A stretch of 64,000 bases of DNA. It comes from Marsupella aquatica. Taxonomy: Eukaryota; Plantae; Marchantiophyta. Position 1 is the first letter of the stretch. Every line of letters begins with the position of its first letter. Where the stretch lies: positions 3,831,659 to 3,895,658 of the forward strand of contig OZ316895.1 in NCBI GenBank assembly GCA_973895155.1, read 5' to 3'. Made by a program: the position numbers and the translations under genes. Below the pieces are notes generated by a model. That model was not told the origin of the DNA. It searched no databases and worked only from the letters and a program-made list of their open reading frames with translations. Below are positions 6,456 to 36,300 of this stretch, one piece after another.

Positions 6456-6539
6456 AATATGGAAAAGATTAAGAACAAGAACCTATCCATTAAGAACTGG
6501 GACCACCAAGATTCTGAGAAAATCTACCAAACCTTTCGA

Positions 6540-7055
6540 TTAGGACATCTCGTTCTCCTCATCTAAATTGTTATATTTGTTCGTAAACAATGCTATTTTG
6601 TCAGAAGTAGTAGTCCCAAGAACAGATATTTCTGGAAGCATAGAAATATCCTGTCGAATAACTCGACAGACTGAGTCAAACTCCAACTCGTCAGTTTCGG
6701 GTATGTCGTAAAGAGCATCATTTGCGACATCGACAATCCGGTTTGCTTGTTTGAGGATAGCCCATAACCTTGTATTTGTAACTAAAAAGTTCCACTTCTT
6801 GCTACAAGCTCCAAGCCAAATAAGGTCTCAGACCCTATCGATAACCAAATCGTTATCGAGGTGTCGATATCCACGCAATCTTTCAATTGAAATAAAGTGT
6901 TCATAGAGTATTGGCCAAATGTTTGAAATGACCAAAACATCTGGTATTCCTCCAATGAGACTAGAGGAGGTTTCATCCAGCGTATCCTATATTGTTTTAT
7001 GTTTCTTTTCATGAGATGAAAGGAAATCTCAAGCCTCATTCAAAAGTTGGCTCAT
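6540..7055 (-). pseudogene. Small F-box protein (paralog 2), three premature stops
   Basis: Manual translation from ATG 7055: MSQLLNEA*DFL...TI*DTLDETSSSLIGGIPDVLVISNIWP...RV*DLIWLGACSKKWNFLVTNTRLWAIL...EMS*. It is 172 codons and colinear with the two neighbouring F-box genes. The ORF track does not report it. Confidence 0.7.
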
Positions 7056-7120
7056 CCTGCTTTTATCATATCACAAAACATTGTTAGAAGACATACGACG
7101 CGCTTGGTCACGTAAGTTAA

Positions 7121-7672
7121 CTAGAATTCCTTAAAAGCGTAGATGTCACCCTCAAGGTATCCAACTTCGTGGCATTTGACTGTAAATTTCCATTTTTCAA
7201 GAGGGTGAAGAGCATCGTAAGTCTTCGTGAAGAGTTCCCTAAGATCTCTGGACATTGACCCCATGAATTTAATTCTTGGGTATTTCTGGAAGAAACTTTG
7301 AACTGTCGATGAGAGAGACTCATTTCCGATCGGTTTAGTAGGATTTCCTGGGAAAGCCAAATTTAATAAACTCAACTTGATTACACCCAGAAGATAGGTA
7401 TTCCCAACAAGGTGGCGCCATCTGCGACACACCGAAGATAGTCCTACAAACTCATCCAATTCCTTTATTGAGAAATTTCCTGCATTAGCCAAGGAATTAA
7501 AAGTCTCCTTGATCCAAGGCCATATCAATTCCGCGACAATGAAATCTGGAAGTCCAGGTAGTAGTGTTTCAACAAATACAGAATATCCCGCCAGTAGACC
7601 ATCTTGGCTTCTGTCCAAAACGTCAAATATTGGGCATAGATATCTGAAGCTCTTCAGACCAGGTTCGCCCAT
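7121..7672 (-). CDS. Small F-box protein (paralog 3)
   Basis: LLPGLPDFIVAELIWP...LSSVCRRWRHLV is an F-box motif; open 183-aa ORF. Confidence 0.75.
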   Translation of the reverse strand: MGEPGLKSFRYLCPIFDVLDRSQDGLLAGYSVFVETLLPGLPDFIVAELIWPWIKETFNSLANAGNFSIKELDEFVGLSSVCRRWRHLVGNTYLLGVIKLSLLNLAFPGNPTKPIGNESLSSTVQSFFQKYPRIKFMGSMSRDLRELFTKTYDALHPLEKWKFTVKCHEVGYLEGDIYAFKEF

Positions 7673-7812
7673 GACTCTTTTCAGCTGAATGATATATCCC
7701 AGAGATTATTTTCACGCGACTGGTCGCGTCTACAAATCAGAATGTATAAACAATTCTTTGAGAGACTGATTTTTTCGGGTCACAACGTGACAAATTATAA
7801 ATGTTGCTTCGT

Positions 7813-9706: not shown

Positions 9707-12401
9707 ACGCAAAAGTCTAGGGAGCGAGAAACAACAACAATGAACAGTGAACTCGAGACTGTGGGCGCCGACACTAAGGAAGGACTAATTAGGGTATTGT
9801 TTTAGCATAACCCTAATAATAGCCTAGCGACAGGAAGGTTCCAGATGATCTCCGTACACTCCACCATCGACTGAACAAACTATGCAATCGTGAAAAAAAG
9901 ATTACCAGATTCCTTTTGATTTGCCGTACTAAAGGAGATTTCTATTTGATCGCCAATTTGAAATTTAAACCGGTAATTATGCAACTGCGAAAGATTGTTA
10001 GTGGGGACCCCTGGATCCGGATCCGTATCTTCACTATATCTGCCAATTCAAATCCAAAATGTGAATGAATGACAACTTTCTCACGATCGTTCCATCACGT
10101 AGTGGAGGTGAACTTCAAAATCATTCCATTTTGGTAGTGGAGACCGTCGGATCCAAATCCGTACTCCACTCTCTATCTTGCCAATTCAAACCCTTACTCT
10201 AAACAACGTAAAACGATTCTCACGGTCGGGGAGAACCGATATTCAAAATCAATCCTGTACAATGATTCTCACGACTGGAGACTCAACCAATTTTCAAAAT
10301 CAAAATCGAGTCCAAATGAACACATCCTCCATGGAGTCAATAGACTGATCTCATTGCTCACGGATCATTCTTCATTTTCAGTTTCTCCTGACCAGGATAC
10401 TAGCTGGGCTCTCAGCGGAGGCTGATCCAAGGCACATTTGAGGTGGAGCAGATTGGATCATTCGACTATTCCAATCGGAGGCGGAGCTCATACAAGCAAC
10501 GCTAGCGCAGCTCTTGTTGTATCACCTTCAATCTTGGGGAGAGCACATCCGATCAAGCAGGAGAGTTGCGACGAAGCGAGACGACAAACATTTAGAACCT
10601 CCATAGTCTGCCTCATTCATCGAAGCATTCTAGCGGACCAACAAAGAGCAGCTATTCTGAAATCACAGTCTGGTCAAGGATTTTGATCTTGATACGATCA
10701 ACAAGTTGTCATTCTCTGGTGGTGGGATTTGATCACGATACTCAAGGAAATTGGAGTTTGAAGGAGGAGGCTTAGTTGGCTGGGACGAGGAGGCTACGTT
10801 GGAAGGAAGAGGCTTGGCTGGGAGGAGGGTTTCCGCCAACATCGGAGGGTTGCCGCCAACATTGCTGAGACCACACGCAACTGAATAACTTGTAAGTATC
10901 AATCAGCATTAATTCCGCAATAAATGAGGAGAGTAGTTGCCTTAAATCACGCATTCAATGCATGAATTGAGTCAATGAAGTTATGGTCCAATTTCTCACT
11001 CCGATTTTGATCAATCTGTGTTTCAAGTCCAATACAGAAGCAATATATCAGAAGTACTAGTAGAGGATCCGAATGAATTCTCTAGTCTAAAATTGTATGG
11101 CGTACGCGTATAGTTGTCCGTACGTTTTGCTATTGTTTATTGTAGTCGACGGCCTAGCAAAACGAAACGTAATCGAGGTCCATTTTTCAGATCTTCCTGA
11201 TCTCAACTTGTTAGTAGGATGACCTATTTTTTGGTTACACATGTAGTTCGTCATGCGCACAGTCGTGTGAACCAATCTATCTCGTGTCTTTTGATATTGT
11301 TTATTGTAGTCGACAGCCTAGCAAATTGGCCAGCAATCTATTTTAAAACCAACGTCTTCGTTTCATCACGCGCACGGTCGTGTTAATGTTTTAGAGGTCA
11401 GCGAAAGCTCTGCACTCTTAGATGTAATCGCCCTTTATTTCTCAGATCTGCCTGATCTCAACTTGTTAGTAGGATGACCTGTTTTTGGTTACACATGTAG
11501 TTCATCACGCGCACAGTCGCGTGAACCAATTTATCTCAGGTCTTTTTGATATTGTTTATTGTAGTCGACAGCCTAACAAATTGTCAGTCAGAGGAATCTC
11601 GATTTTTCCTTGATTGCAAAAATGGTTACATCGATCCCGAAGGACTTCGGATGTGGACTCCATATCCACTAGCACTATCCAGGAATTTAAGCTACACAGT
11701 ATCTATAACAAGTTCTAACTTGAACTACACTTGAATTTGTAGTTCTAATCTTTGACTACTCAAAATATTGTTGACTTTGATCGAGTCAGTCATTCCAAGA
11801 TGAAGGCATCCACTCATCGGTGTCTGGTGTGGATTCCCTTGAATCCAGAAATTCTTCCTTTGCCCAAGTCCTAACGTCCATAGATTTTCTCGGCTTGCTC
11901 TTTCTGTGATACAAATCAGAATCTTCGTTCATCTCTAATTGCCTTTTCTTTGGTGTGTCCACTTTCTTGGCCTCCTTCTTGACTGTCTTAGCATCTGCTC
12001 ACTAGAAGAAAACAGGGCCCTTTATGACCAATCACCCAATGACAGAGATGAATAAATGACCAAAATTTCTAATGACACAAAAAGAATGACAGGGGAATGA
12101 CTATCCACAATGACCAATAGACTGAAATGACAAAATGTTAACTTTTGCGTCATTTTGTATAATGTCTGTAATGACTGATGCGACCAAAATGACCCAATTT
12201 TCCTAAATGGTCAATTTAGACACGTGTCTTAAATGACGCAAATAATAACAACAATGATAAATCAATGTTTAGCAACATTATAGTCACTCTAGACAATGAT
12301 AGAAATGACCAAAAATCTATTTAGGTCATTTTGGACAACGGTGATAAATGACAAAAAATGTATTACCGTCATTTTAACCAACGGTGTTAAATGACAAAAT
12401 A

Positions 12402-12830
12402 TAGGGTCAATCTGAAAATGAGAAATAATATATAAGTGTTTACAATAACATATTGTCATTATGGACTCCTCCCATAAATGACTAACTCTAGGGTCAATCT
12501 TGAAATTAGGACATATCAGTGTTTACAAGAACATACCGTCATTATGGACTTCTCTCATAAATGACTAACTCTAGGGTCAATCTTGAAATTAGGACATATC
12601 AGTGTTTACAAGAACATACTGTCATTATGGACTTCTCTCATAAATGACTAATTCCATAGTCATTCTTGAAATTAGGATATATCGGTGTTTACAATAACAT
12701 ACAGTCATTATGGACTTGTCGCATAAATGACTAAATATAGGGTCAATCTAAAAATTATGATATTCAATGTTTACAATAACATACAGTCATTATGGACTTA
12801 TTGCATAAATGACTATTTATAGAGTCATTA
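12402..12830. repeat. ~83-bp tandem repeat x5 in the CACTA left subterminal region
   Basis: Unit tagggtcaatcttgaaattaggacatatcagtgtttacaagaacatactgtcattatggacttctctcataaatgactaactc starts at ~12402, 12489, 12572, 12655 and 12738. Confidence 0.9.
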
Positions 12831-12919
12831 AAGAACCCAAGAGATATGAAAATTAAAATACTCAATAGTCATTCCAGACACCGGTCATAATTGTAGAGTC
12901 ATTGATATGGTTGATAACC

Positions 12920-15900
12920 TTTCCACTAAGTGCGAGACACAATACTCATCATTGTCCTCCCACTAGTTGCGGATTAGCAATTTGAACACATGTCTTGCAT
13001 TTACTTTAGGCATGATGCACCTAGCTTTGGGGAAATCACTCCCAAGTCATACACCTTTGGAGTGATTTTCCAGAACTGTCACCATATATAGATGCGCGCA
13101 TACTATCGTATCCAAAGGCAAATGAAACTTTTTTGTCTCTCCAAGAAGTAGGGCAATACCAATGGAAGGTTGTCAACCTTTGTTGTAATTGTGTCATGTT
13201 TGTGCCTTTGTTTGGATGGGGAATATTCTATTTTGCAAATGAATAGTGACAGGGCAATGAAGGATGTAGTGTAATCTTTATTGGGTCATTTTTAGACAAA
13301 TTTGTGTCATAATGCCAATGACTACAAGTAGAGTCATTAAACTGTCATATGGTATGTCATATCAGTCAAGTGACGAGACTTGTGGTCATTTGTGTGGTCC
13401 CTCATGCAGTCATTAAACACAAGCACAAATGACCAGTTTGGGGCTAGGGGCTGGAGATGGGGCCTAGAGTGCAATGGGGCCCCACATAGAGGTGAGAACC
13501 CCTCCACTAGGTGCAGGACACTATACTCATCATTGTCCAACCACTAGTTGCGACATAAACACTTTGGACACATGTTTTTGCGTTTACTTAAGGCATGATG
13601 CACCTTTGGGGAAATCACTCCCAAGTAGTATGACTTTGGAGTGATTTTCCAAAAGTGTCACCATGCATGCATACCATCACATCCAAAGGCAAATAAAAGT
13701 TGTTTTTTGGTTCCCCAAGAGGTAGTGATGCACCAATGGAATGGGCAAGGGAGTCGTGCTTCTCAGTATGGTGTGGGTGCGGGTTTAGCAAAGAGGAATA
13801 TTCCAATCTTGCAAGGAATCTAGAGTTGGCTCTAGTTGGAGGTACTAGGGCCTTTATTGGCTCATATGTGAGCAATGGCCCGTCATAAATGCCAATGACT
13901 AAAAGTAGGGTCATTAAAACTGTCATATGGAGTGTCATATCAGTCTAATGACTGGATTTGTGGTCATTTGAGGGGTCCCTTATGCAGTCATTAAGGAAAA
14001 GCATAAATGACCAGTTTGGGGCTAGGGGCTTGAGGTGGGCCCTAGAGTGCCATGGGGCCCCACATAGAGGTGAGAACCCCTCCACTAGGTGCGGGACACT
14101 ATACTCATCATTGTCCAACCACTAGTTGCAACATAAACACTTTGGACACATGTTTTTGCATTTACTTAAGGCATGATGCACCTTTGGGGAAATCACTCCC
14201 AAGTCGTACGACTTTGGAGTGATTTGCCAAAAGTGCAACCATGGATGTATACCATCCCATCCAAAGGCAAATAAAAGTTGTTTTTTGGTTCTCCAAGAGG
14301 TAGTGTTGCACCAATGGAATGGGCAGGGGAGTCGTGCTTCCTGGTATGGTGTGGGTGCGGGTTTAGAGAAGAGGAATATTCAGACCTTCCAAGGAATCTA
14401 AAGCGGGCTCTCTTTGGAGGTACTATGGCCCCCATTGGGTCATTTTTGCGCAAAGTTGTGTCATAAGTGCCAATGACTACAAATAGGGTCATTGAAATTG
14501 TCATTTAGGATGTCATATAAGTCAAATGACTGGACTTGTTGTCATTTGAAGGGTCCCTAGTGCAGTCATTGAAGACAAGCCTGAATGACCAATTTGGGGC
14601 TAAGGGCTGGAGGTCGGCGCTAGAGTGCCATGTAGACCCACATAGAGCTCGCAACCCCTCCACTATGTGCCAAATACTATATTTACGATTCTCCAACCAC
14701 TAGTTGCATCATTAGCACTTTGGTCTCATTTCTGTGTTTACTTAAGGGATGATACAATCTTGGGGAAATCACTCCCAAGTCATACAACTTTGGAGTGATT
14801 TGCCAAAAGTGTCACCATTGATGCATACCATCCTATCCAAAGGGAAATGAAGCCATTTTTTGTTTCTGCACGAAGTAGCGCAACACCAATGGAAGACTAT
14901 CATCCTTCCATGTAATTGTGTCATGTTTGTGCCTTTGTTTGGATGGGGAATATTCTATTTTGCAAATGAATAGTGACGGGGCAATGAAGGATGTAGTGTA
15001 ATCTTTATTGGGTCATTTTTAGACAAATTTGTGTCATAATGCCAATGACTACAAGTAGAGTCATTAATATTGTCATATGGTATGTCATATAAGTCAAGTG
15101 ACTAGACTTGTGGTCATTTGTGTGGTCCCCCATGCAGTCATTAAACAGAAGCACAAATGACCAATTTGGGGCTAGGGGTTGAAGGTGGGCCCTAGAGTGC
15201 CATGTGGCCCCACATAGAGGTGAGAAATTCTCCACTAGGTGCGGGACACTATACTCATCATTGTCCAACCACTAGTTGCGACATAAACACTTTGGACACA
15301 TGTTTTTGCGTTTATCAATGCATGATGCACCCTTGGGGAAATCACTCCCAAGTCATACGAATTTGGAGTGATTTTCCAAAAGTGTCACCATGGATGCATA
15401 CCACCGTATCCAAACGCAAATGGAGCCATTTTTTTGTCTCTCCAAGAAGTAGTGCAACACCAATGGAAGGTTGTCATCTTGTGATGTAATTGTGTCATGT
15501 TTGTGCCCGTATTTGGATGGGGAATACTCCATTTTGCATATGAATAGTGTCGGGGCATTGTGAGTAGGTGTTATAATCTTCATTGGGTCATTTTGGAGGA
15601 ATAGTGTGTCATTAATGCCAAAGACTGCAGTAAGGGTCATTTTGGCCGTCCGTTTGGAAGTCATTTGTGCCAAATGACTCCATATGGGGTCATGATAGAG
15701 GTCCCTCATGGTGTTATTATGGACCATAAAAAATGACCCTTTTGGGTCTAGGAGCTTAATGTGGCCCTAGTGTGCCATGGGTCCCTACATGAAGGTGGCA
15801 ACCACTCCACAAGGTGCGGGGTACTATACCCACTATTCTCCAACCACTAGTTGCACCATGAGCACTTTGGAGCCATGTTTTTGCAATTACTTAAGGGATG

Positions 15901-16400
15901 ATCCAACATTGGGGAAAATCACTCCCAAGTCATACAACTTTGGAGTGATTTGCCAAAAGTATCACCATGCATGCATACCATTCGTTCCAAAAGCAAACAA
16001 ATTATTTTTTTGTCTCTCCAAGAGAGATATAGTGCAATACTAGTGGAAGACTATGTCCTTCTATATAACTATGTCATGTTTGTGCCGACATTTGGATTTT
16101 GGATATATTCTATTAAATTTCAAAGGAATTGTAAGGGGGCACTCTGAGAGGCAGTATACTCTTTATTGGGTCATTTTCACATAATATCTGTCATTAATGC
16201 CAATGACTACAATAAGGGTCATCTTGGTAGTCATATTGGAGGTCATTTGAACAATTGACTGCATATGTGGTCATTAATGAAAACACCTCAAATTAGGGTA
16301 ATCTTGGTTGTCATACTAGAAGTCAGAAGTACCAAATGACTGGAAATGTGGTCTTTACAAAGGCTATTGGGGGGTTCTCTTTGGAGGTACAAGGGAGTTC
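12920..16400. repeat. ~578-bp internal satellite, ~6 diverged copies
   Basis: The anchor ccactaggtgcgggacactatactcatcattgtccaaccactagttgc recurs at ~12920, 13500, 14078, 14657, 15230 and 15805. ggggaaatcactcccaagtc(a/g)tac..tttggagtgattt is present in each unit. Confidence 0.9.
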
Positions 16401-19400
16401 ATTGGGTCATTTGAATTAAATGGTGCTTCAATCTGAGGACTAAACATGGGGTCACTCACGCTGTCATATTGGAAACCATTAATGTTGGCATATTGGAGGT
16501 CATATAGTCATGGGAAGGCTCACTTGTTAATGCTTTGGTGTAATGCTCTCAAAAACTTTTAGACAACATAGCCTCATATGTAGTGGTCATGTAGCATGTA
16601 AGGGGCCCGTGAAGTGGGCCCTAGACGAGGGTGTTGGCAAGGGCATGTACAAAAGTACACATACTATACATATGTCTATATGAAACTAATAGTTGCCCTA
16701 TAAATGTGCTTGAGTCATGACTGAGGGTTTCTCTTGAGGTTTCTCTCAATTGAGTCACGAGTGGAAAGCTATTAAATGCTAACATTTGGATGAGTATCAC
16801 TATCATATGGTGAGACTAATAAGGTAGTCCAAAATTGTGTTCATGCATGCATATATTTTTGCAGACATAACCTATCACTCAAAAACCATGGCCGGTACAT
16901 AGTTAATTACACTAATGTAATCCACAACACCCTCACCTCCCATGAAGGATTAATTTGTTTAAATGAGGGGCGGGTTATGGGTTTAGGGTCAATGTGATTT
17001 TGAGCCATAACTCTAGAGCACCAAGTTAGAAAACCAAGGTTTTCCCTTGGTCCAAAAGGACCTTTTATATTGCGGGCATCATTTTTTATATATAACATGC
17101 GTCCTTAACATTCTTGTTGGCACCTACACAAACAGCCATGACCTTTAGGGCTCTCTTTAAATTGGATATACCATAACCTTCATTGGGTTTTTTGCAAACC
17201 AATAATGGAGAGGTATTAAGTTTATAACCTAGTGGAGAGGTATTAAATTGTCCAACCTAGTGGAGAGGTATTAGATTTTTGGCACCTACACAAGTGCCAA
17301 CGGCTGAGATCACACCCTAGATCATACAATCAACATCGTGCTCCAATTCCCGCATTCTTGTAGTAGGCCCTCGGAACAAAAGTGGTCGACAAATCTGCAT
17401 TGGAGGTGCACAACGGCAAATGTCGAGTCGAGCACAAGTTGTGAAATGTAGGGTTTTTGTGGTTGAGGTGCGCGTTTTCATCAAAGGAATGTGGCGGTGG
17501 GCAATGTGCATGGAGTGCGGGGCGCACTTGAGTTCAGTTGCGAGTTGAGACAGCTTTGTGGAGTGCGCACTCCGTTTCTTCCCACAAACTGTATCAGGGT
17601 GCTGCGCGCGGTCAGGGGAGTAGGAAAGCTTAGGGTGAGCCGGTAGGACTTGGGAGCTACTACCACGGAAGAGCTCCAATCCATTGTTGCAGTGTCGCGC
17701 AACATTGCAGAGCATTTGGCGTTAACGTTGGAGCTATATGTCTCAGAAAGCTGCCAAGGGCGACGATGTGCGATCGATGATAACCAATGGGTGAGGAGGA
17801 GACTTGGGACAATACATTACGAAGGAGCTGCGGGAGGCTACCTCAGCGAAGGGCGACAAGCTGTGATTGGTGATAACCTGCGGGTCATAAGCTGCGAGCT
17901 CGGCTGCGAGGAGTGGTTTAGGGTTCATTGGGAAGGAGCTGCAAGCTATGATTGGGGTAACTAAGCTACAGAGGAGTGGTGGAGCTGCGGGAGGTCACAT
18001 TGGTGGAGCTTCGAGAGGTCACAGCAGGCAGGATCTGCGGGAAGAGCTGCAGGAGGTCTCACCGTTCGTCAGTGTGCTGCGGGAGCTGCGGGAGGTTACA
18101 TCGGGAGCTACGGGAGGAGAAACGGGAGCTGCAAGAGGTTGTGCTCTTCTTCCCCTTCAATCTGGCTATGTTTCATAGTTTCAATTTACTCTTTCCTTTT
18201 GCCATGCTACCCCTGCCTTCTTGCTATGTTGCTCTATTGCTCTGTTTCTCCTCCTGCTTAGCATACATTTTTTGTGTTTGCTATGTTAAGTTCCGAACCC
18301 TTCGATTGCCACGAGACTATTACCTCAACCTCTCAGTCCCTCTCTAGAGCTCTCTCTGTGATTGCTCGAGGTTGCACCAGTTCTTCCGAGTTTTCCATTT
18401 TGGCTGCTGTTGATTTCCGACAGTCCCTATCAATTGTTTGATTGTCATTTTCCCTCTGAATGGTACTGCTTGAGTTCCAACACCGAATTGAACAAAAACG
18501 TGCTCATGTCCTTGGCAGGAGTTCTGCACGACCTTAGACAGTCGTCCCCTCTCATGTGGTGTGCATAAGTTGAAGTGGATAAATCTGTAATTCTAAAAGC
18601 CACCTTCTGCCTGAACTTGTCACCAAAATTATGAGAACCTATTTTTCTAACAGTCCCTTCACATAAACCATGCCCTTTTCCATTAGACCCAATTCTTGTC
18701 GGAGACGATCGATTTGTTCGTCATTGCCTTGGATTATAACATCAGTCGATCATTCATCATCAGCTACCACCAACTTTACTTATATCTGCTCCTTTTGTGA
18801 TGCTCTCGTCCAATAATAGAATCCTTTGAGTAAACGAATGAAGAATGTTGTTAGAACGGCATACAATAAGCATTGAGGCGTACACGGGAAGGACAAGATT
18901 GACCCTGTTCAATGCTTGAGTGGGCCAGGATTGTTTCTGCCTAAGTGGAAGGCTGGTCTGTTTAATGCTGCCTAATTGAACATAGAATCTGCTAGTAAGT
19001 TCATGGAGTTTGGCAATGAATGTTTCATTGGCAATGTTTGTTGTGTTCGTTGTGTTCAGTGGGCCGGAATGTCTTACAAAATTATACCCCACTGTCCACA
19101 AAGTCCAAATGGAGAATTTGCCATCAAATGATTTTAGTCGTTTACTTCAAACAAATAAATTTTGTTACAGAGAATGATCCAGAAGAAGTCTTGTCACATT
19201 AGGAGAGTACTAACCTTCCTAGACCTGACGCAACTTGGGATGGATCATCGCCTGGGTATCTCCCGCTTTAGACTCTGGGTAGAATTTCCCGATGCTATGC
19301 AGGGACAAGGTGAGAACTTTATTCACAGCCTTGACCCATGTTTACTTCATGCCTCTACATGATTTCATTGTGTGATTGTTTTGAAGTCGTAGCCGTGGTG

Positions 19401-20228
19401 AAAAGCTGGTCTATAAAAATCGAATTCAGGTTGCTGCTGTATATAAAGCGCAGCAGGATCAAAACTAGAAAACTGTCCCAGCAAATTTTGTAGCTCTCAC
19501 TACTTGAATATATAAATTATTTGCCCTGATCGGTCTTAGCCTGCTGCGCACAAGGCAGGCAATGAAACAAGTCTGTCCATTTTAAAACTTGAGAACCCGG
19601 GTTCCTCACTTCTTTTCTTCCGACCCATCACGCGCGAATAAGTATAGGGTTTTTTTATTGGGTTTAGTGAAATACTTTTAAATTTTTGTTGAAGAACATT
19701 AGGGTTATTTAAATCCAATTTTGAGAATTATAAGAATCATAGGGTTTTTTTAAATCAAATATGGGAATATTCTTGGAATATTCCATTAAGTTATGGATAA
19801 AACAATTCCTAAAAAAAACTTTATTGACTTAACTTTTAGGGTGTTTATTCCCCCAAAACTTCGAGCGTGATATGAGACACCCCTTGGATTGAGGCCCCCG
19901 AGCTTGAGAACCAATGCTTTGCTGAAACTCAATTGCTATTTGTTCTGTGTTGCCCTTACAGATTTAAAAAAGGCAGGGTGAGTGAGCACTGCTGGACAGA
20001 AGGCGAAGGCATACAGGTTGCAATATTTGTGATTGCTTCCAATCATAGGCCAAGGTTATTTGCGTTGCTCAGTCCTAGTGCTTTGCCATCCATAAAGCAT
20101 TGGTTTATGCTGCTCCCTTGTGGTTACATGTCATATTTTATGCTGCACCCTCATTCTTTTGTGTCATGTTGCACCCTGTTATTCCTTCTTGTTTCACAAT
20201 CTGATGTAGGGTCTGAGTGTGCAGGACC

Positions 20229-20888
20229 ATGGCTCGCAATAAGCAGAAGGCCATGAATCGTTGCAGAGGTGAATCCTCTCAAGCACCTCAATTGGCCTTA
20301 TATTCAGACATTGAGATTAACCAAAATAGTCCACATGTATGTGCGATTTGTGATGAGGGAGGGGATCTCATTGTTTGTGATGGGCCTTGCCACCGACATT
20401 TCCATAAGAATGTTTCCTGTCCTTTGGGTCAGCAATGGCTATGCCCAACTATATCCCTGGCTGATGGCCATGTTGGAGAATGGCTTTGTGTTGATTGCAA
20501 GAATGATGAACATTCTTGCTTTAAGTGCCATGTGTCTGGAAAAATTGGTGAAGAGGTAAGAAAATGTCCAGACCCTCTCTGTGCCCGGTTTTACTGTCGG
20601 CAGTGTTTGGTTTCTGGCACAGCATCATGTGGACTCCATATTTGTCTTACTTGTGGACAGGGGCCCAATGATGGGGCTAATGGCTTTTTGGTTCAGTGCA
20701 TGAGGTGTCCTAAGGCATGGCACAAGGACTGCCTGTTGTTTATCCAACAGAGGGGATTTGCCCATGATCGAACAATTTGGGATCACTCAGCGCATGGGCA
20801 GCCCAAGAAGGGGATGTTTTACTGTCCTGACCATGACATTGACCCTACACTAGGCACTCCTGCTAGGAGCCACATATCTTGGATTTGA
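20229..20888 (+). CDS. Stand-alone EDM2-like composite PHD-finger protein carried inside the CACTA element
   Basis: Intact intronless ORF from ATG 20229: CAICDEGGDLIVCDGPCHRHFH...CVDC...CFKC...CPDPLCARFY...CGLHICLTC...CMRCPKAWHKDCL...IWD...FYCPDHDIDPTLGTPARSHI. As I recall the EDM2 PHD region (CAICDNGG..CEGSCLRSFH / CRRCPKSYHRKCL / IYCQEHEID..LLTPVRDH), the two are colinear. Confidence 0.85.
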   Translation: MARNKQKAMNRCRGESSQAPQLALYSDIEINQNSPHVCAICDEGGDLIVCDGPCHRHFHKNVSCPLGQQWLCPTISLADGHVGEWLCVDCKNDEHSCFKCHVSGKIGEEVRKCPDPLCARFYCRQCLVSGTASCGLHICLTCGQGPNDGANGFLVQCMRCPKAWHKDCLLFIQQRGFAHDRTIWDHSAHGQPKKGMFYCPDHDIDPTLGTPARSHISWI

Positions 20889-21472
20889 TTGAGGCTGGAT
20901 GGAACACAAACTTGAGATAGAGCTTTTTGATGGTTTCACGTGGACTTAAACAATTTTCAGAGTGCTAAAACATGTGGACTATTTATATGCAGTTTGATGA
21001 ACTCCTCATGTATACACACTCTACGACAGTGCATTGCGGATTGAGGCAATTAATTTTGAGAAATCAACTTTACTATCTTTTCCAGGGTAGGATTCCGATT
21101 TTCATGCATGTGCTTTGAGTGTGATGTCTAAACTTCACTTGTAAATTTGTCACTGATGTCACAAACGTTACTTATTCCAGACCTGTCTGCTCACATTCCT
21201 AATAGGCAAACAAATATTGGAAATGATGAAGGCACAGAGATTTACGTTCATAGTATCATTCTGATGACACTGTATGTGATGCTCTATTTGTATGCAAGAA
21301 GGAGAAGGTGCCTCACTACAGTGGATTTGAGAAACTGGGCTCTGTGGGTTTGAGCAATTGGACTGTGGTTGGCATCGGTTGTACAACTGTGACGGTAGGC
21401 CCAATTTTGTATGCATGTCACACTGATTCAGTTTGAAAATCATAGTTTGAATACAATTTCAATCAAGCTAGC

Positions 21473-24400
21473 ATGGCACAATTGCCACAGAATACGTTAG
21501 GTGTGGGTAGAACTCCAAAGTTGCCACTCTTCCATCCAGCTAGAGTACAACATCGTGATGATGCTTTGTGGGTTCGAGAACAGAAGGCCTGCCACAAGAG
21601 TGGGGACCATAAGATGTACTGCCCTTGTGTGAACTGCAAAGGGAATTATAGGACTAATCGGAATACTACTAGACTGCACCTTATTAAACATGGTCGGTAC
21701 CCTGCATGTCGAGTGTGGGTGGGAGAGGGACAAGACTCTTCTGATGAAGAGTGGGGTGCTGACTACATGTCACAACATGGCCCTGAGGCATTGAGGGTAG
21801 CAAACCTTCAGCAGGCAACCTGTGCACAACAACCAACTGTAGATGTTGAAGAATATTTATTTGTAGACGTTCCAGAGTATCCAACTGTGGATGTTCAAGA
21901 ACATCCAACTATAGATGTCGAAGAACATATCAGGGCTCTACTAGAAGAAACGTTGCTGAGAACCAGTGAAGAATCCCCTGAACATGAACTAGATGATCAG
22001 GACCGTTTTGACTTGGATTTTGTACTTGGGGATGATGAGAGTGAAGAAGGTGCCCATCCTGTAAACCCCCTTGAAACCTCTGAAACTCCTGTGGAGACTG
22101 ATCCTGCACAGTTATCTTTAGATGCAGCAATGCAACCTTTGTTCCCAGGCAGCAAAATAGATGTTGTCATTCATGTTGCTTCTGCTGAACATCTGTCATG
22201 GCCATGGATTCTCAAACAAAGGAGTGAATGCATTGTTGTCTTTGATGGGGGAGCATGGTATGCCTGCAGAGCATAATCTGCCCAAGAACTTATATGCTGC
22301 AAAGCAGCTATTGAGAAAGCTTGGCTTGGATTATGAGAGAATCCCTGTCTGTGAGAAAGGTTGCATGCTCTTTAGGGGTGAGAATGCCAAGTTAGAAAAC
22401 TGTTCAGTGTGTCAGCAGCCCAAGATGAAGAGAGTGGGGAATTCATTACAGGCAAGGAAGGTGGTGAGGTATTTCGCTATAATTCCTAGGTTGAAGAGAT
22501 TGTATGCCACTGCTGGTACATCTAAACTCATGACTTGGCATCATGAGAATAGAAGCTCAGACAACATGGTTCGGCACGCAGCAGATTCAAAGGCTTGGAA
22601 GCATGTGGATACAAATATTGATCGGAAATTTGCAGATGAACCAAGGAATGTGCGATTTGGGTTGGCACTTGATGGGGTGAATCCCTTTGGGAATAATTCC
22701 ACAGCTTGGTCTACCTGGCCAATACTGTTGTTGAATTACAACTTACCTCCTTGGCTTACCACCAAGAAGTTCTTTGTCATGCTAGCTATGCTGATTCCAG
22801 GACCTGATTCAGTAACAGAGGAACAACTAGACATAATATTGGGCCCATTCTATGAGGAGCTGGAGCTGTTGTGGAAGAAAGGAGTGCCCTGCTTTGACAA
22901 ATTGCCACGCCCAGGATTGTCTCAACACTTCAACCTTAGGGCTGTGCTATTGTGGACAATCAATGATTACCCTGCATATGGTTTAATATCTGGACAACAA
23001 CACTCTGGATACAAAGGATGTGTCATCTGTGGGCCAAAATGTGTGGCACGTGGTTCTAAGCACTTGCAGAAATTAGAGTACAGTGGCCACCGTCGATGGT
23101 TAGCAGCAAGGCATCTTTTTCGTAGACCAGACAGTGCACAATACTTTGATGGTGCAATTGAGAGTCGACCTGCACCGTGTAGAATGACAAGCTCTGATAG
23201 AAAGAAGTGGGGAGACGAGACAACAGAATATTTGAAGAAGGGAGGAACCAAGGTTGAGGATGAGAAATGCCCTATAAAGGTGCATGGAGTGAAGAGGGCT
23301 ACTGGTCTGTACAAGTTGCCCTATTGGAATGTAAGACTCCATACTACTACAATGAATTTCTGCAATCTCTTCATATGACTTTGAAATATATTCTCTTCAT
23401 ATACTTCCTGTAGCCCAGATTTTGTAATAGTTGTATTCAATGCACTAATTTCTGAATTGTGTCTACTGCACAAACTACTGTCCAGTGATGCCAAAAGTTG
23501 TATTCAATGCCCTAATTTCTGAATTGTGTGTCCACTGCAGAAACTACTCATTAACCATTGTCTAGATCCCATGCACTGTGAGAAGAATCTTGCACACAAC
23601 ATTGTGCACACTATCATTGGGACCAAGGACACTCCTTCTGTGAGAGAAGACATGAAGCTCTTACAGGTGCGCCAACACCTATGGCTTGTACCCAATCCAG
23701 CTCCCAAGCGTAACGATGACAAATTGTTGATGCCCCCAGCCCCATATTGCCTGAGCAAGAAGGAAAGAACAAGGTTCTTGGAGGTGTTATTGACCTTGAA
23801 AGGGCCCACTGGTTTTTCAAGTTCTTTGGCGAAGTGTGTTACAAAATCCAAGAAACTCTCTGGGTTGAAATCACATGATTTCCACCAACTCATGCAACAG
23901 ATTCTCCCTTTGGCAACAATGGGATTACTTGATGAAGGGGTTCGCTTGGCCATAGCTGGGGTGAGCAATATCTATCGCCAGATCTGTACGAAGGTGTGGG
24001 ACCCTTCAATGTATGAGAATTTGATGATGGATGTTGCATTCACTCTCTGCATTTTGGAAATCCATTTTCCACCAAGCTTCTTTGATGTCATGACCCATTT
24101 AATGATTCACCTAGTGGAGGAATTAGACTTGTGTGGCCCAGTTATAGGCAGATGGATGTACCCAATAGAGAGGAACCTGAAGGTATTGAAGGGTTATGTA
24201 CGAAACAAGGCACGTCCAGAGGCTTCTATGGCTGAAGGCTATATATTAGATGAGTCTTTGGGATTCCTTTCTGAATACATGATTGATGCAAAGGGAGAGG
24301 GAAAACGAACCTGGGAGTTGGAGGAGGATGCTGGCGTTGCAGGCATTGTTTTGGAAGGGGCTACAAAGGCGATAACTTTAGATTGGTCTGAAATGATGGC

Positions 24401-25408
24401 CATGCATCATTATATATTGGAGAATGAAGAGACAGTGGCTCCATGGTACAGGTACATAAACCCTAAATTATGTTGCCCCATTGTGTTTGTATATTCATGG
24501 TGGATCATGCACTAATGTCTTCAGTGTTGTTGTTGCCATGTAGGATATATGATGCTACCAATGAGACTGTTACCAAACGAAGAGTGGATTTACGGAAGGA
24601 ATGGATGAGGAAGCCTGCCAATCGAAGAAAACCGGTGGAATTTCCCGCTGACTGCCAAGAATTGCCACCTTTCAGGGAATGGTTTCAAACATTAGTCAAT
24701 ACCCATAATTTTGAGAAAGAGTCTGAGCGGTCATTACTATCTGTATACTCCACACCACCTAGTTTGAAGGCACGACTGTATAGGGCATGCAGAGCCTATG
24801 GGCACCATTGGAGGACTATTCCATCCTTGGGGTGTTTGAGTGATTGTGATTCTGGTGCTTTCAGCACTTTTGATTCTGGGATGGCTTCTACATTCACTGA
24901 GAAGCGAGTGGACAGGTCTGGTGCAACCATAGAAGAATCTGTACAGTATGTAGGGGCCTTGACAGATATCTTGGTACTGAATTACGGCAGCTTGAGGAAA
25001 GAGGTGATTCTTTTCAAAGGGAAATGGGCAGATCCATCATGGACTCCTAAATCCTCTGCCAGTATGAGGTATTCCGAGTCTGGTCTTTGGCAGGTGAATT
25101 TCCATAGAGAACTGGGTGTGTCCAAGAAAATGCATTACGTTTTCCCAAAGCAAGTGGAGCAGGTTTTCTTCCACCCCAATGAGAAGGGGATAGCATGGAG
25201 AACAATCCTCCACAAAGAATCCAGGTCCACAAGGGTGTTAGGTGATTACATAGACTTTGATTTCCATGCTACAATGGAAAACAATGCCAAATTACACATC
25301 GAATTGGCTAAGGCCTGTAGGTCTAGAGCAAATCCAGGACCATTGACTGGTCCCAAACGAGGCAGAGATGCAGAGGGATCTGCAAGAAAGGGCAGGCATA
25401 AGCAGTGA
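21473..25408 (+). pseudogene. CACTA TnpD/Tnp2 transposase (transposase-associated domain, Transposase_21, DUF4218, DUF4216), one frameshift
   Basis: KMYCPCVNC..RLHLIKHG; frameshift at ~22160; RNVRFGLALDGVNPFG, NYNLPPW, WTINDYPAYG. Intron 23331-23540 joins LPYWN|KLLINHCLDPMHCEKN. GLKSHDFH, FPPSFFDVMTHL, RWMYPIER. Intron 24452-24543. YVFPKQVEQVFF. Confidence 0.93.
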
Positions 25409-25499
25409 ATAGGTTTTAGGTGTGTGCGGGGGTGTGTGAAGTCCATAGATGGACTACATGTATGGACTATATATGAAATCAGACTAATGGTTTACCCAT

Positions 25500-28400
25500 T
25501 TGTGCAGTTGGTGAATGCAGCCTGTGAAAGGAAGATTGCAGGGTTGTCACATTTTGTGAATCCTTATGAGGAGGCCCGAAATCGGAACATAGAGCATAAT
25601 GTCAGAATTATGCGTGATCTAGGACTGGGGCCAGACTGCAAGCTGATGTGTGTGTTAATATGTCTGTTGCAAATTTGATTCAGTAGATGGAGTTGTCAGG
25701 TTCCTTTTCTGTTTTCATATTCCAGATTGGTCTCATACTAGTATTTATCCTGTACATAAGTACTAGACAGTGTTACGGTGTTGTAGATTCATTTTGCATG
25801 TATGTTTGATCTGCATTGGTGTATGTTGATGATTGCTTTAATTGTTCCTTAGAGGCCCAACCACACATGTACAACGAGAGAGAGAAAAGCCTGCTTTGGT
25901 GAAAGGTACTTCAACTGAAACATTGCCAAAGAGGAGGAGCTCTAGACTATCAGAAGTTACCAAGGTGAACATGGCAGAGTTTGGTGATGATGGCTATGGT
26001 TCTCCTTCTGGGTATGACACTGAGGATTGTGACATTGGAGGGTCAGAACCAGAGAGTGAACAACAGGTAATGCTTGAACTTCATCATCCTAATAGGAAGG
26101 GATCCTTGTCCCTTTTTCAAATTATATGTTGATATGTTTACATTGTCCATGATGTAGGTACAGAAACAAAATCGTGGTCCTAAGAAGACTGGGCCTGGTG
26201 GAGGTGGGCTGGTGAGATGTTGGAAAGACCCAGACACTGGACTCTTATATGAAAGTGAGTGGATTGTACTGTTCTACTTTTCAGGTGTGTTTGGAAGTTG
26301 ATATTCTACTTGGAAATGAAATTAATTGAAGTGCTTTGGTGTTGTGTGTTTGTTTAGTGGTTCCATCAGCATCTGAAGGCAGATCAGGTCAATCTGATGT
26401 ACTACATTCCAGAGGATCTTCAGGTAATACACAATCTGCTCGTCATGCATATGCAAGTGCATTTGCTGTACTTTTCAATCATGTACATATTTTTTGATTG
26501 AATGCATGTGTGTGCATTGTAGGCGGGGCCTCTGAGATGCGCAGGGAACGAAGGCATGCTAAGAAGCAGTTTGATAATACTGCCAAACAACAAAGGGATT
26601 GCGGAGAGGTGCCCAAACACATTAAAGTGAGTATTGTACTTTTTTTGAATGTAGATTTAGACAAATCTGATCCTCTCTGTTGTTGTGTGTATAAAACCTG
26701 GACTCTGCATAAATTCCAGAGTTATGATCTGACACTGTCTGTGAAATGCAGATTTATGACAATGATATTGATGATTATGATGGCAACAAACAATACTGGC
26801 TGGAGGAACTTCGTGGCAATGTACTCAGAGTCTTTGATGTATCAAAGCCAAAATGGACTGATCATCCACAAGTTCATACAACCACAGTGTGGAATAACAT
26901 GGCAGCTGAGTGGGAGTATGTGGGTGGGGAATTTATTAACACCAAATTCCAGAGTCATTGTCGTGGCATATTGAAGAGAGAGCGCCATAAAATGCATGTT
27001 TACTGGAAGAAAGTTTGCAATGAGGATCCAACCAAACCTGGGCCATCTGGTGTTGATCCAAAGAAATGGGCAGCTTTGGTATCTCATTTTACCAGTCCAG
27101 CATTGATATCTTTGAGTAAACAGATGACTGATAAAAGAGCACGAGTGCAAGATACCTCTCACTTTGGAAGGGGAGGGCATGCTGCAGCAGCAAAGAGAAT
27201 GGTAAATTGTCTATCATTTTCACTATCAATTCTGTCTTGTTTGTGAATCTTGATGAAAACAGACTCTGTGATTTCTCATTCATTGTGTGTTTGAACAGAA
27301 GCAGAAGAGAGGATCAAGCCCAGGTATATCTGACCTGAAAGAAAACCATGGTAGTCAGGGTTCATTGCCAAAGGTGACAATGAGCCCATCATTGGCAAGT
27401 GCAAAAGGTCAGACTGGTAGTTTTGTGGGAGCAAAGGTGAGCCCATCATTGGCAAGTGGGGAGGGTAAAAGTGCTAGCTTACTGGGGCAAGGATACAGAC
27501 ATGGATCAGCTGTGAGTATTGTCATACCAATTTGATTTGTACATCATTCTCCATTTGACAGAGTGTTGTGTCGTTTGTAAGTTTGACAGTGAGAATGTTG
27601 TGTTGGTTTGTGGTTCATTTATAGACCCCACATTCAAAACAAGAGATCACTGCCATTGGGGCTGTGAAATTGGATGTCGCTGAGTTGAAAGGCACTGTGA
27701 GGGAGTTGACAAACATGATGACTACGTGGATGGCACATCACACTAGTAATGTACAAGTTCCAATAGTTGTGCCTAGTCACAGTAAGTTGACTACAACTAC
27801 TAAACAAGGTAGTAGAAAGCGATCTTTTACTTTTTCAGGCGATAATGAAGGTAAAATTCTCTATCATGTATACACTGTCCATTCAATGTAATTATTGTGA
27901 TGTGTATATGTCATTGCATGTTTATAATGTTCTTGCATGTTTTTAGTGTGATTATATGTTGCTGGTGTATACATGTTTGTTTATGCATTACTTTTGTGTG
28001 TGTTTTATGACAGCATCTTTAGGGGAGCCTCCTGTGTCGCAGGGAAGACCAACTGACACAGCTAACAGTACTCTAAAGCAAACTGAATTGGAAGTGAACC
28101 TTTTGCCATCTAAGTTGCCCAAAGAAGCCATTTCAGATGCCTTTCAGTTGCCAGAGGATAAGTCGACTCAGTTGACACCAAATGTAACCCCATAATCATC
28201 TGAGTTGCCAAAAGAAACTCCCATTCCAAGTGAGCAGGATGACACTCCATCAACTAGAAAGGGAAAGAAGAAAAGGAAGAAAGGATCCTCAGCAAATGCA
28301 TCACCTGCACAGAAGAAACCAATGCAGTCTCCTAACCCTGTTGCAAAGGTAAATGTGTGTTTGATTTGAGTGTTCTTCTATCTTTCAATTTCTGTTTATT

Positions 28401-28690
28401 GCATTTTTAACAAAATGTGTTGTTCACAGTTTGCAAGAGGAGATTTGGTGAAGATGAAGAGCGTTGTGGACAATTCCATGATAGTGGCAGAAGGTGAGGT
28501 GACAGGGCTGCCAGGAGAAGATAAGTTTCATTGTGCAGATTTTGAAAGCCCTTTCTTGCGAGTGCGTGTGATTGAAGTGTTTGTAGATGTGGCATTGCCA
28601 TTTGCCAATTCAGGGGAGAACCAGTCTAAATTATCTGATGTGAAAGGGATGAATGCCCTATGGAACTCTAGATTGCTTAAGAAGCAATAG
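25500..28690 (+). CDS. CACTA TnpA-like multi-exon gene (Transposase_24-like region and C-terminal Tnp1/En/Spm-like domain); exon structure approximate, may be disrupted
   Basis: 26750-27200: GPSGVDPKKWAALVSHFTSP..SKQMTDKRARVQDTSHFGRGG. 28430-28690: IVAEGEV..FHCADFESPFLRVRVIEVFVDVALPF..LSDVKGMNALW. Many short GT-AG introns; a possible in-frame stop at ~28193. Confidence 0.75.
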
Positions 28691-29795
28691 AAATAGCACT
28701 CTGTCAAGAAACAATAGACATGATAGAATGACAACTCTATTTTTCTATAAACATGCAGAGTGATTGGTATGTCAGGTTGTAACAATTGACAATCTAATAT
28801 TATTGATGTCAATGTAATTTTGTTTCATAAATTTGCATTGAGTTCAATATTTATCGTGAGACTTATGAAGGTATCTTGTATGAATATCAATTGGATTTGT
28901 GATATATATCGAATGTTGCTTTAAGTTTTCATTCAGCAAATCTATTGAATGGCTTTGTAATGTATGATTTTTGATTGACATGAAGTTTTATATATCATGA
29001 TCACTTAAATTTGAATTTCTCCAAATCATTGAATACTTCGTCTGAATGACTGGCTAGAATGACTGAATGACTGGCTAGAATGACTGAATGACTGGCTAGA
29101 ATGACTGATGTAATGGTCATTATCCACAACTATCTTTGTGACCAATATGACTCAACTCTGGTCATTAAAGACATAGACTAAATGATTCAAAGAATGACAT
29201 ATACAATGACCTTTCTCATGGTCATTATAAACAAGTCCACTATGACTCACTTTATGTCATTCAAGACATGTCATTAATGACTAATGTGTATCTTTACGTG
29301 TCTTCTCCCAATTGAACCACGTGTCTCAATATGACTTGTTTATACCGTAGTCATTTTGGACACGTCCAAAATGACCCAAATATATTGCCAAATGGTGAAT
29401 CCTCTTTAAACCACGTGTCACTATTTGATTTGTTATATAATGTACGTCATTTTGGACAAGTCCAAAATGACCAATGTTATTTGTTTTTTAATTGCCACGT
29501 GTCGTTGTGTGATTGGGTACGGGGACCATCGACGGTCAACGGCAATTGACCGTCGATGGTGATTTGTGTCGTCATTTTGGACCGTTCAACATTTATGACC
29601 ATATCATAAAAATGGTCATTTAGGATAGTATGAAATGACCACATGTTTTTAGCGTCATTTGTCCAAAAGGACCGTGACCAAAATGTCCGTTGTGACGCGT
29701 CTGGAAAGACGAGAACGATTGCGTCATTGTTTTGTTAAAAAGACCTGATTAATAGTCATTGTTTCGGTCATAAAATACATTGTTTTCTACTAGTG

Positions 29796-30127
29796 GCTGC
29801 TGCTTCCCCCGAAATGGATTAGACGCATGCTCTGGCCTTCAACTTCTCCCCCTTCGAAACGGATTCCACGAGGGCTTTGCCCTTTAACTTCTCCCCTGAT
29901 GCCATCTTTGTAGTCATCTCTGTCGGATTGGTCTCCATCTGATCTTCCATCGACAAATATGGCGAACAATGTCATCTCTCACAAAACATTTGACCCGATT
30001 TAGTCACCGCAAACATTATATTACATCGCTGACACATTCTGTAAGGAGTACCACGAATTCGATACGTCGAACCTTCTGAATCGTCCGTCGAAACATCCTC
30101 ATTCTTTGAGCTTAGCGGAGTAGTCAT
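29796..30127 (-). pseudogene. 5' half of a small zinc-ribbon-like ORF split by the CACTA insertion (continues at 11996-~11870)
   Basis: MTTPLSSKNEDV...MCQRCNIMFAVTKSGQMFCER*HC...SISGEAAA joins in frame to DAKTVKKEAKKVDTPKKRQLEM... once the element and one TSD copy are removed. Confidence 0.6.
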
Positions 30128-33328: not shown

Positions 33329-36300
33329 ATGGTGACATCGACAGTCTGGATCAGGGAAGGCGGACAAGTTATTATAGGCATACGTGAGAAATAGGTTGGA
33401 AAAGGTCGCGTGATAAGTCTTGATCCTTCCAGGGTTTGTCACAATGTTCCTCTTGGGGCGGACAGAGTTCTTCTTCTATTGGAGGAAGTTTTTGACGAGA
33501 CCATTCTATGCGAAGATGGCAAACTTTTGAAGGACATGATTGGGGGTTACCTTGTATGGGAAAGGAATCAGCTTTTTCGAGCTCCCATGGAATCGGAGGA
33601 TGTGTTTGGCACTGTTGGTGATGATCAAGATCCAGTCAATCAAAATTCTGATGGGAACAACCATAATGAGAGTCGGTCTGGTGTGGAAGTAGTTTTACCA
33701 AAGGCCTTGTGGATGGGCATGCCTGTAAAGGTGGTGGATGAGAACAAGTTGATTTTTGCAGTGGCAACTATACATGTTCTAGATCCTATAGTGAAGCTTG
33801 GGGATGTCACCCTTGGGAATACACATGTGGGAATTCTGATCAACGATTTTGTCGAGGGAGCTACCATAGATCATCTGAAGCATAGAGATTGCTTAAAAGC
33901 TTGGTCAATGGACCAACTCATTGCCAAGGATGGCAACTTGTTGTCTTTCCACAACATCAGGCAAGCTGTGGGAGGGAACACATCTCCAACAAGTGGCAAG
34001 CGGTCCTACGTCCATAAAAGTAGGAAAAGAAAGAGTCCATCTTCCCAGACATCTAGAAGAGACACATCTTTGGCACGTCAAGATGTGTTGTTGATAAACA
34101 CTAAGGACTGTTGTAGTGAACATTGTTGCCAATATTTGGACCGCAACTTGGCTGTGGCAATTAGGCAAAAGTGGTGGTCAAAATCTTTTGCGGAGCGCAA
34201 GGAGGAGGAAATCAAAGCTATTAAAAATACAATACACTTGGGTACTGGAGGAAGGATTCTAGCAGTGGAGGGCAAAGTATTGTGCTTGGAGGCATGGAGA
34301 ATCATTCATTCAAGAGGAAAGACTCAATTTTATGCCTTGAAGAAGACTGTGATGGCTGGAATGAACATAGGTACCCATGGTAATGCTGGAAAAAGGCGTA
34401 TGTCCGAGAAAGTATCTCAAGCGTTCATGTCAATGAAAGAGATTATTGAGGAGGCAGCTGATCATCATCCAGCCAAGTTGAGAACCATGGCAGATAATAC
34501 AAGGATGGTTTTGAGGGAATTGCCAACAAATCTTACTTGGGAGAATATTAGAAATAGGGTTAATGTTGTCAACCAGGAGGCTGGTCTTCCTTCAATTTCC
34601 CAACCCACCTTGAGTCATCTACATCAGATGTATTTCAAGGAGTTCTCACGTCACAAAAAGGGCAACAACTTTTCAAAGTGTACAACTTGTAGTGAGTTGC
34701 TTCAACGGAAAGCAAACCTTACAAGAGCTAAGGAAGAGTTAGAGGGCCTAAGGCGTGACGAGGAGGAACATCACCAAGACCACACACAGCAAAGAATGTG
34801 CTATCATACTTGGAGATATGAGTCCATCCATCGTCCAAAGGAAGTGTTATGCCTTATTCATGATAAGATGGATCATTCAAAGACAGCTCTCCCAAGAATG
34901 CCCTTCAATCCTAAGCATGTGGATGGTGCCCAAAAGTTCCCAATTACTGTCATTGGTATCCTTACTCATGGTCATGGTCCCAAGGCCATAGCCCAATATC
35001 ATGTTGGAGTGTGGCCAGGTGATGTCAACATCACTATTGGGTCAATTGAGTCAATACTAAGGATGTTGGAAAACCCAAATCCAATGATCAAATCACTTGT
35101 GGAGGGGCCAGACTCGACAAGTCTTTTTAAAGACCTCCTTTTTGGGAGAGCAGATATCTTGGAGGCAAGTGTCCTTAGAGCATTTGAGGATGACATTGCC
35201 TACATCTCAAGCCTAGGTACTTTACTCACAATCCTTTAATTTATGATTATTTAATAATATAAGCTCACACACACTGACACTTTACTTTGTGTAGTTGTTG
35301 CTCCTCCTAGCCAAGGTTTCATTAATAGGGTTTAAACCCTAAACCCTAAATTGGGGTTTAGGGTCTGACAAGGGTTTTATTTAAAAGCATTCTGAGATTG
35401 TTACATTGTGATGCAGCACTTGAGGCACCAAAGTTCAGGCCCCTTCCACGAGTATTGATGCTACAACTGGATAATTGTGCCTCAGACAACAAGAACAGAT
35501 ATATGATGGCTTATTTGTCATTGTTGACGGCAAGGGAGGTGTTTGAAGAGGTTCATCTTGGTTTTATGGTGGTTGGGCATACTCATGAGGATGTCGACGG
35601 TATGTTCGGGCATTTTTCAGAGTCTATGATGCATAACCCCACATACTCATTGCCTGAGTTAATGTCCTTGTTCATGAGAGCAAGGACACCCAATGCAGTC
35701 CCACATTTTCTACAGGAGGTCCCAGATTTCAAAAACTACTTAGCTCCATTCATGTTGAAGGGCCCTGAGGCATTGGTGGGGCATTTAAAACCCAGGCTGT
35801 TTAGGTTCTATGTTCGTCATGATAGTATGCCATGCTTCCAATACAAAATGAAGTCAACTGATCAGAGATGGTTACCCAAGGAAGGTATTGAAATGTGGTC
35901 ATGGAAAGATGACAAAAGTCCTCACATCCCAATTGGGGTGCCCAAACGGCTACCAATGATGGAGTTGAAAATGCTTCCTGAAGTGCTGACAGGGTTGAAG
36001 AAGCATGTGTCATTCTTTGAGTTTATTCTAAAGCGAACAAAAGAGGAAGAACCAAAGCGACGTTGGACAACTCTCATCAATTATTGGAATGACATTGTAG
36101 ATACTCTACAGGGTGAGCAGGTGCAATATGAACCTGAAGGTGCACACAACTTGGAATACGGGTTTTGGCCTTTATCAATATGGAGAGAGCACGTTCCACC
36201 AGAATATCGAAATGTGGCATGTGAGTTGGAGGCAACAGTGGATTATGTGGGACCAGCAAAAGATAAACCTCCTGAGAGTTTTAACCCTAGGGTTGATGTT

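Follow-up and report, generated by a model that had tools for sequence, protein, structure and literature searches.

A CACTA element carries a conserved gene for an EDM2-type zinc-finger cassette with a histone-H3-like N-terminal tail

A 17.8-kb CACTA element at positions 12000-29795 of the 64-kb window (the whole stretch of DNA analysed) carries, upstream of its transposase gene, a stand-alone 219-aa open reading frame (20229..20888, + strand) that joins a histone-H3-like N-terminal tail to an EDM2/NSD-type zinc-finger cassette. This PHD ORF has in all probability been kept by selection. The reading that we prefer, and to which we give an even chance of being right, is that it is a conserved accessory CACTA gene whose product serves as a small chromatin adaptor or decoy, with a tail that baits the host H3 machinery and eases silencing.

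The limits of the element were drawn from its inverted termini, target duplication and empty site. The left terminal inverted repeat (12000..12029, + strand) starts with CACTA and pairs with the right terminus (29766..29795, - strand) at 80% complementarity over 30 nt; GCT is duplicated on either side (11997..11999 and 29796..29798), and contigs join 11996 to 29796 in 4/4 runs, giving the empty site. The CACTA inverted termini, the 3-bp duplication and a TnpD with Transposase_21 assign the element to CACTA/En-Spm. The left subterminal repeats (12210..16330) comprise tandem units of 43 bp and 83 bp, together with about six longer ones of 572-581 bp with internal palindromes; the latter, at 12900-16300 and with one palindrome each, were missed by Tandem Repeats Finder. 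Contig depth over 16949-19592 was much below that of the rest of the element and CpG was above it (observed/expected 0.67 for 17300-19200), and this part is probably a separate insert or a region variable between copies. No extra accessory gene was found in 17300-20250 (nine ORFs, without a meaningful Pfam match). Three TATA-like words (19412..19515, + strand), recognized by consensus match, form a candidate promoter of the coding block. A short MITE-like insert of ~315 bp (19588..19911) has 9-bp direct repeats outside and imperfect inverted ends, and contig depth spikes to very high values in its bin; in one run a loose end at 20586, inside the PHD ORF, resembles the terminus of this insert.

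The preliminary description held that this copy had landed in another TE. The flanks do look repetitive and are joined across the insertion in 4/4 runs, but the flanking ORFs match no transposon family in Pfam. Four ORFs of 185-456 aa at 3168-7705 (- strand) match no Pfam family apart from a weak F-box, and the stretches 5925-6482 and 7121-7705 (- strand) are F-box-type paralogue look-alikes; the ORFs at 3168-7705 may belong to a repeat that the CACTA element interrupted.

The TnpD transposase gene (21473..25408, + strand) shows Pfam matches to Transpos_assoc, Transposase_21 (E 8.5e-67), DUF4218 and DUF4216. Two breaks at 23331-23540 and 24452-24543 are bounded by GT..AG and are likely introns by their sequence, contrary to the coding damage that they appear to be. 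TnpD had been called frameshifted, and its frame does shift near 22164 in this copy, where two bases are absent (22164..22165, + strand) that other copies possess in 4/4 runs (in all of the listed depth in three runs and ~60% in the fourth); adding them puts TnpD back in frame. The contrast drawn earlier between an intact PHD ORF and a broken TnpD fails with this result, since the 2-bp deletion is absent from other copies, and it has no weight for the further reason that the TnpD coding sequence (~3.6 kb) is a likelier target for a small deletion than the 0.66-kb ORF. Selection on the PHD ORF was accordingly not read from the frameshift. The multi-exon gene at 25409..28690 (+ strand), for which Pfam gave no meaningful match, is presumably TnpA-like by its motifs and position. 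These homologies mark the organism as a plant.

The PHD ORF runs from an ATG at 20229 to a stop at 20886-20888 without an internal stop, as first described, and when the bases of the element were shuffled 200 times, no stop-free run reached this length (mean longest 134, maximum 202). The first ATG of TnpD, at 21473, lies 584 bp downstream in the same orientation, in agreement with the ~600 bp originally given. The composite PHD cassette occupies residues 36-215 (20334..20873, + strand) and includes the C-terminal YCxxH..TP..H signature; the longer form reported for it, YCxxHxIDxxLxTPxRxH, was found as YCPDHDIDPTLGTPARSH. The ORF is not made only of this cassette as had been stated, for ~35 residues precede the first cysteine. 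Pfam placed PHD_NSD above cut-off (E 3.5e-8) and also returned PHDvar_NSD, PHD and PHD-1st_NSD. The single-exon product of ~25 kDa is predicted to fold well; an AlphaFold2 model (95 sequences) had a mean pLDDT of 90.1, with residues 1-13 below 50 and predicted disordered.

The start context of the ORF has A at -3 and G at +4, with an in-frame stop 15 bases upstream, and an AG at 20223-20224 could splice an upstream coding exon onto the ORF. AG occurs 4 and 19 bases before the ATG of the ORF and 1 base before that of TnpD, which suggests alternative splicing of both from a shared leader. The further proposal that the ORF may be spliced onto TnpD or TnpA with its cassette intact found no support: within its final 90 nt GT occurs only as poor donors located upstream of the signature, and relatives conserve the stop. 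On these grounds an in-frame fusion to TnpD was rejected. The same grounds weigh on an improbable alternative, in which the product is a targeting factor: held to the transpososome by non-covalent contacts, it would direct new insertions into a particular state of chromatin. In other elements the choice of integration site is guided by reader domains, as in chromodomain integrases, and this parallel, the position of the ORF directly before TnpD and co-oriented with it, and the repetitive flanks of this copy would all suit such a factor; however, no fusion is available to the ORF, and a single insertion site in a repeat-rich window tells little.

The ORF was found in other copies and organisms and is thus not peculiar to this copy. 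One contig from organism A covers 20126-21312, taking in all of the ORF and the greater part of the spacer to TnpD, with 14 differing letters and 16 gap letters. The ORF was covered in 30/30 bins in 3/4 runs (two from organism B and one from organism C) and in 8 in the fourth. Linkage of the ORF to TnpD in other copies is presumed from continuous cover, no listed contig spanning both; contig depth was 701 over the ORF and 750-888 over TnpD, which is of the same order and a hint rather than a copy number. Of 38 differences listed, one is located 3' of the ORF and 37 lie within it, divided into 20 silent, 16 missense and 1 nonsense change, with no listed indel. The silent share (20/37) exceeded the 21-29% expected at transition ratios of 1-6 (p 1e-5 to 1e-3), and pN/pS was 0.23-0.34, an estimate that pools contigs, includes private mutations of this copy and stands without a matched TnpD control. 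The Cys and His residues of the cassette were unchanged in all listed differences. The ORF is, by these values, under purifying selection rather than evolving neutrally. The CpG observed/expected ratio was 0.22 for the ORF and 0.23-0.27 for TnpD, compared with 0.54-0.60 for an apparently intact threonyl-tRNA synthetase gene of the window (47561-49454, - strand; long exons and probably an intron) that stood in as an approximate host control; the depletion in the ORF, on par with that in TnpD, suggests long residence in methylated DNA.

Three near-length relatives with 82, 71 and 53% identity stop at the same residue as the ORF. A profile search returned 514 proteins, 150 of which were listed. 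When 152 of 155 rows were placed in a tree (three with repeated modules were dropped beforehand), 18 short rows formed one branch with support 1.0, and in an IQ-TREE analysis of 43 rows the nine longer clade members formed a 100/100 branch. A further search yielded 18 more clade members among 33 matches; in a 175-row tree with the tail excluded, all 36 clade rows (77-278 aa) fell on one side of a branch, the support of which was 0.61 with fragments included. Transposon context is established for the window's member alone, the other 35 relatives being without genomic context; 14 of these 35 terminate 1-9 residues past the C-terminal signature. Relatives in metagenome contigs were sought with a 4-sequence alignment, and 0/74 matches were confirmed; 1/21 was confirmed among viral contigs with the same alignment (a 40-residue match, E 6e-4).

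That the cassette is of EDM2 type, as proposed at the outset, was borne out by the word search, in which the sole longer match (1 of 1309 candidates) was an EDM2-like protein with 29% identity over the whole cassette and the C-terminal signature; identity as a generic PHD was rejected for this reason. The solved structures closest in sequence were the PHD cassettes of NSD proteins (NSD3, E 3e-10; NSD2, E 2.5e-7; residues 30-167). Foldseek matched NSD PHD5-C5HCH and PZP domains at whole-chain TM scores of 0.2-0.3, which are low, and matches in the ESM Atlas were all under 0.9, with NSD-like PHD clusters of Streptophyta on top. The resemblance to NSD1/2/3 has limits: the matches end at residue 167, the EDM2 C-terminal signature is absent from NSD, and the ORF product has neither a SET nor a PWWP domain.

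Phylogeny set the ORF in a clade separate from host EDM2, with at most 36% identity to host rows over at least 150 residues, the host EDM2-like rows compared being without this organism's own EDM2. RFD and the ELP region were found in 0/18 clade rows tested; of 137 host rows, 79 had RFD and 83 had ELP. This bears on the very improbable alternative, now largely refuted, of a neutral Pack-CACTA passenger taken from a host EDM2 exon. Many clade rows are shortened or frameshifted, one minor copy bears the nonsense change, and loose ends reveal inserts in some copies, all as a passenger might show; but decayed copies are expected of any transposon gene, full-length members down to ~40% identity share the same stop region, and neither the pN/pS values nor the distance from host rows fits a recent capture that drifts. 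The marks of Pack-CACTA capture, near-identity to a host exon and neutral drift, were both lacking among the rows and copies compared. The element shares with CACTA/En-Spm and Pack-CACTA elements its CACTA termini, 3-bp duplication, subterminal repeats, TnpD and TnpA-like gene; it differs from Pack-CACTA captured fragments, as portrayed in PMC13317346, in that its extra gene is ancient and conserved and evolves under selection.

One group of EDM2-like rows that end just past the cassette (P0012, P0013, P0015, P0020, P0021, P0052 and P0149; support 99/98) had RFD in 5/6 and ELP in 0/6 of those tested. A V-x-C-x-RCPxxW motif is common to the transposon clade and to these RFD+PHD rows; RC[PS]xxW[HC] was found in 10/18 clade rows, 7/7 rows of the group and 8/130 others. 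The tree does not unite the group with the clade, and an AU test (p 0.357) neither rejects nor shows their union. By this shared motif the RFD+PHD rows are a candidate donor lineage of the transposon clade.

Like the Arabidopsis EDM2/EDM2-like proteins, which act with ASI1/IBM2 and AIPP1/EDM3 in the AAE complex, the ORF product has the C-terminal signature and an atypical PHD cassette of 2.5 fingers (described for EDM2 in PMC7529245); the closest EDM2-like match was a Chenopodium protein with 29% identity. It differs from EDM2 in being transposon-borne, in having no RFD, no methyltransferase-like ELP and no acidic stretch before finger 1, and in having a His-to-Cys change in finger 2, a shorter linker between fingers 2 and 3 and the H3-like tail. 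At most the product functions in the manner of an EDM2 reader, and it falls short of full membership of the EDM2 family. Its zinc ligands are retained save for the Cys that replaces His in finger 2, the residue being Cys in 12/13 clade rows and His in 122/124 host rows. D or E stands three residues before the first Cys in 114/125 host rows and 0/16 clade rows; the acidic run before finger 1 is replaced in the clade by Q-x-x-x-H (Q in 15/16, H in 15/16). In AIRE-type fingers the acidic residues before the finger contact the H3 tail. H3K9me2 is among the marks bound by EDM2 fingers (PMC7472560), EDM2 alters TE transcript levels in both directions (PMC3632883), and some plant PHD superdomains reportedly bind no H3 (PMC9640981). 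The preliminary description had carried H3K9me2 reading over from EDM2 to the ORF, an assumption that sits badly with the loss of the host's acidic pre-finger residues from the clade; since these are lost and His is swapped for Cys, the ligand of the clade cassette may differ from that of the host or may be gone.

The first reading of the ORF had missed its start, where the pattern A-R-x-K-x-x-A-basic-basic is found; the H3-like tail (20229..20261, + strand; within the residue 1-13 region) reads Met-A-R-N-K-Q-K-A. The 82% relative has Met-A-R-T-K-Q-K-A, and a minor variant of the window's family also has Thr at that position. An H3 N-terminal mimic is defined in PMC8166343 as iM-Z-R-X-K, a start shared by 48 of ~21,000 human proteins. 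The window protein, with Met-Ala-Arg-Asn-Lys at its predicted start, conforms to this definition with a small Z; it is without a K9 equivalent. Tails were scored in 31/36 clade rows (three were without the region and two were missed by the search pattern), and 25/31 contained an [AST]RxK core; in members found after the idea had been formed the core was present in 12/15 scored (3/18 were unscored). At least 4/10 identities to H3(1-10) were counted in 24/31 clade rows and 12/142 non-clade rows, clade rows being kin so that the counts are not independent. Shuffles gave this many identities in a mean of 4.0 rows (maximum 11 over 3000), and 1/3000 scrambled H3 motifs did as well on the clade rows.

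These data allow a bolder form of the proposal, which is tentative and which we regard as doubtful: the ORF would be a transposon-encoded H3 mimic, from an old plant DNA-transposon accessory family, in which an H3(1-10)-like tail and a re-specified EDM2 reader together act as a decoy nucleosome tail against silencing. A rather unlikely alternative accepts that the gene is maintained and gives its parts other roles: the tail would be a basic stretch serving nuclear import or DNA binding, and the cassette, having lost the ability to read histones, would be a protein scaffold for TnpA/TnpD or for a host factor. The tail is rich in K and R, with Pro at position 3 in 12/25 core-bearing members; Met immediately precedes the core in 13/25, and in the other 12 the motif is internal (after M-P-x in 4, otherwise in 8). 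The tail was not packed back onto the fingers in the single-chain model, and this, with the cassette changes described above (acidic residues lost, His to Cys), would suit a scaffold. Against it, residue order counts beyond composition, shuffled and scrambled motifs scoring far lower, and Ala at 7 (18/25) with K or R at 8 (16/25) and at 9 (18/25) matches the spacing of H3. Classical PHD-type recognition requires a free N-terminus (PMC8166343). A complex predicted from the cassette and the tail of P0002 scored 0.02, which has no weight either way, and no PDB chain matched the first 24 residues of P0002 at E <= 10, the query being short.

Similar starts were also seen outside the clade. Nine long EDM2-like rows (P0012-P0016, P0022, P0031, P0066 and P0085), all outside the angiosperm-like group, start with Met-A-R-(T/V/A), and six of the nine bear ELP; from these rows, ancestral EDM2 may itself have begun with an H3-like A-R-T that is absent from most flowering-plant-like rows. 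Three short EDM2-like rows (P0094, P0095 and P0118; 320-386 aa), without RFD or ELP and outside the clade, start with Met-A-R-x-K and may have combined the tail with a bare cassette independently.

Under the adaptor/decoy reading that we prefer, the gene would descend from a host EDM2-family gene captured in the distant past, its RFD and methyltransferase-like domains having been lost, and would be expressed from the shared leader spliced to the ORF's own acceptor. The product would be nuclear. Its EDM2-type cassette would, by prediction, bind chromatin or proteins associated with it; its H3-like tail would bait host readers and writers of the H3 tail, or could gate the protein's own fingers, and such baiting would weaken silencing of the element.

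The start iM-Z-R-X-K is common to the window protein and the human H3TMs (VRK1, MEF2, BCL11, FOG and SALL; PMC8166343). These are host proteins, whereas the ORF is a plant transposon gene with its own PHD cassette adjoining, and the motif is internal in about half of its relatives. VANC of VANDAL, PAG2 of Plavaka and the SET gene of HarbingerS are likewise separate genes beside a transposase, shown or proposed to act on chromatin; PAG2 is given as a SET and DNA methylase in papers on accessory chromatin genes in transposons (10.1101/2025.02.11.637652; PMC10398659), and chromatin-related accessory genes were also found in a giant EnSpm case (PMC12477816). In contrast to these DNA-binding anti-silencers and predicted enzymes, the ORF encodes a non-catalytic reader-type module with a histone-like tail. 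The red-algal paper (10.1101/2025.02.11.637652) presents VANDAL/VANC as the only transposon case of binding and modifying its own sequence. A full-text literature search, with subscription papers, supplements and Repbase-type annotations mostly outside its reach, found no CACTA-borne EDM2-type PHD gene and no transposon-encoded H3-tail mimic.

Histone mimicry against host silencing is a strategy known from viruses, and the ORF product is a direct test case for its use by transposons. Few transposon products have been demonstrated to counter host silencing, and this one is small and easily made and assayed. It also lets the binding of an EDM2 cassette be probed once the acidic pre-finger residues are changed, and it draws attention to the A-R-T/V start of several full-length EDM2 rows that are not angiosperm-like.

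Other transposon-like sequences were noted to the right of the CACTA element. ORFs of 614 aa and 447 aa at 33395-36705, the second with DUF7869 (E 4e-37), mark a second transposon-like element. Pfam also identified a DUF659 (hAT-like) transposase remnant at 38110-39465 (- strand) and a DDE_Tnp_4 (Harbinger-like) transposase remnant at 59240-60358 (+ strand).
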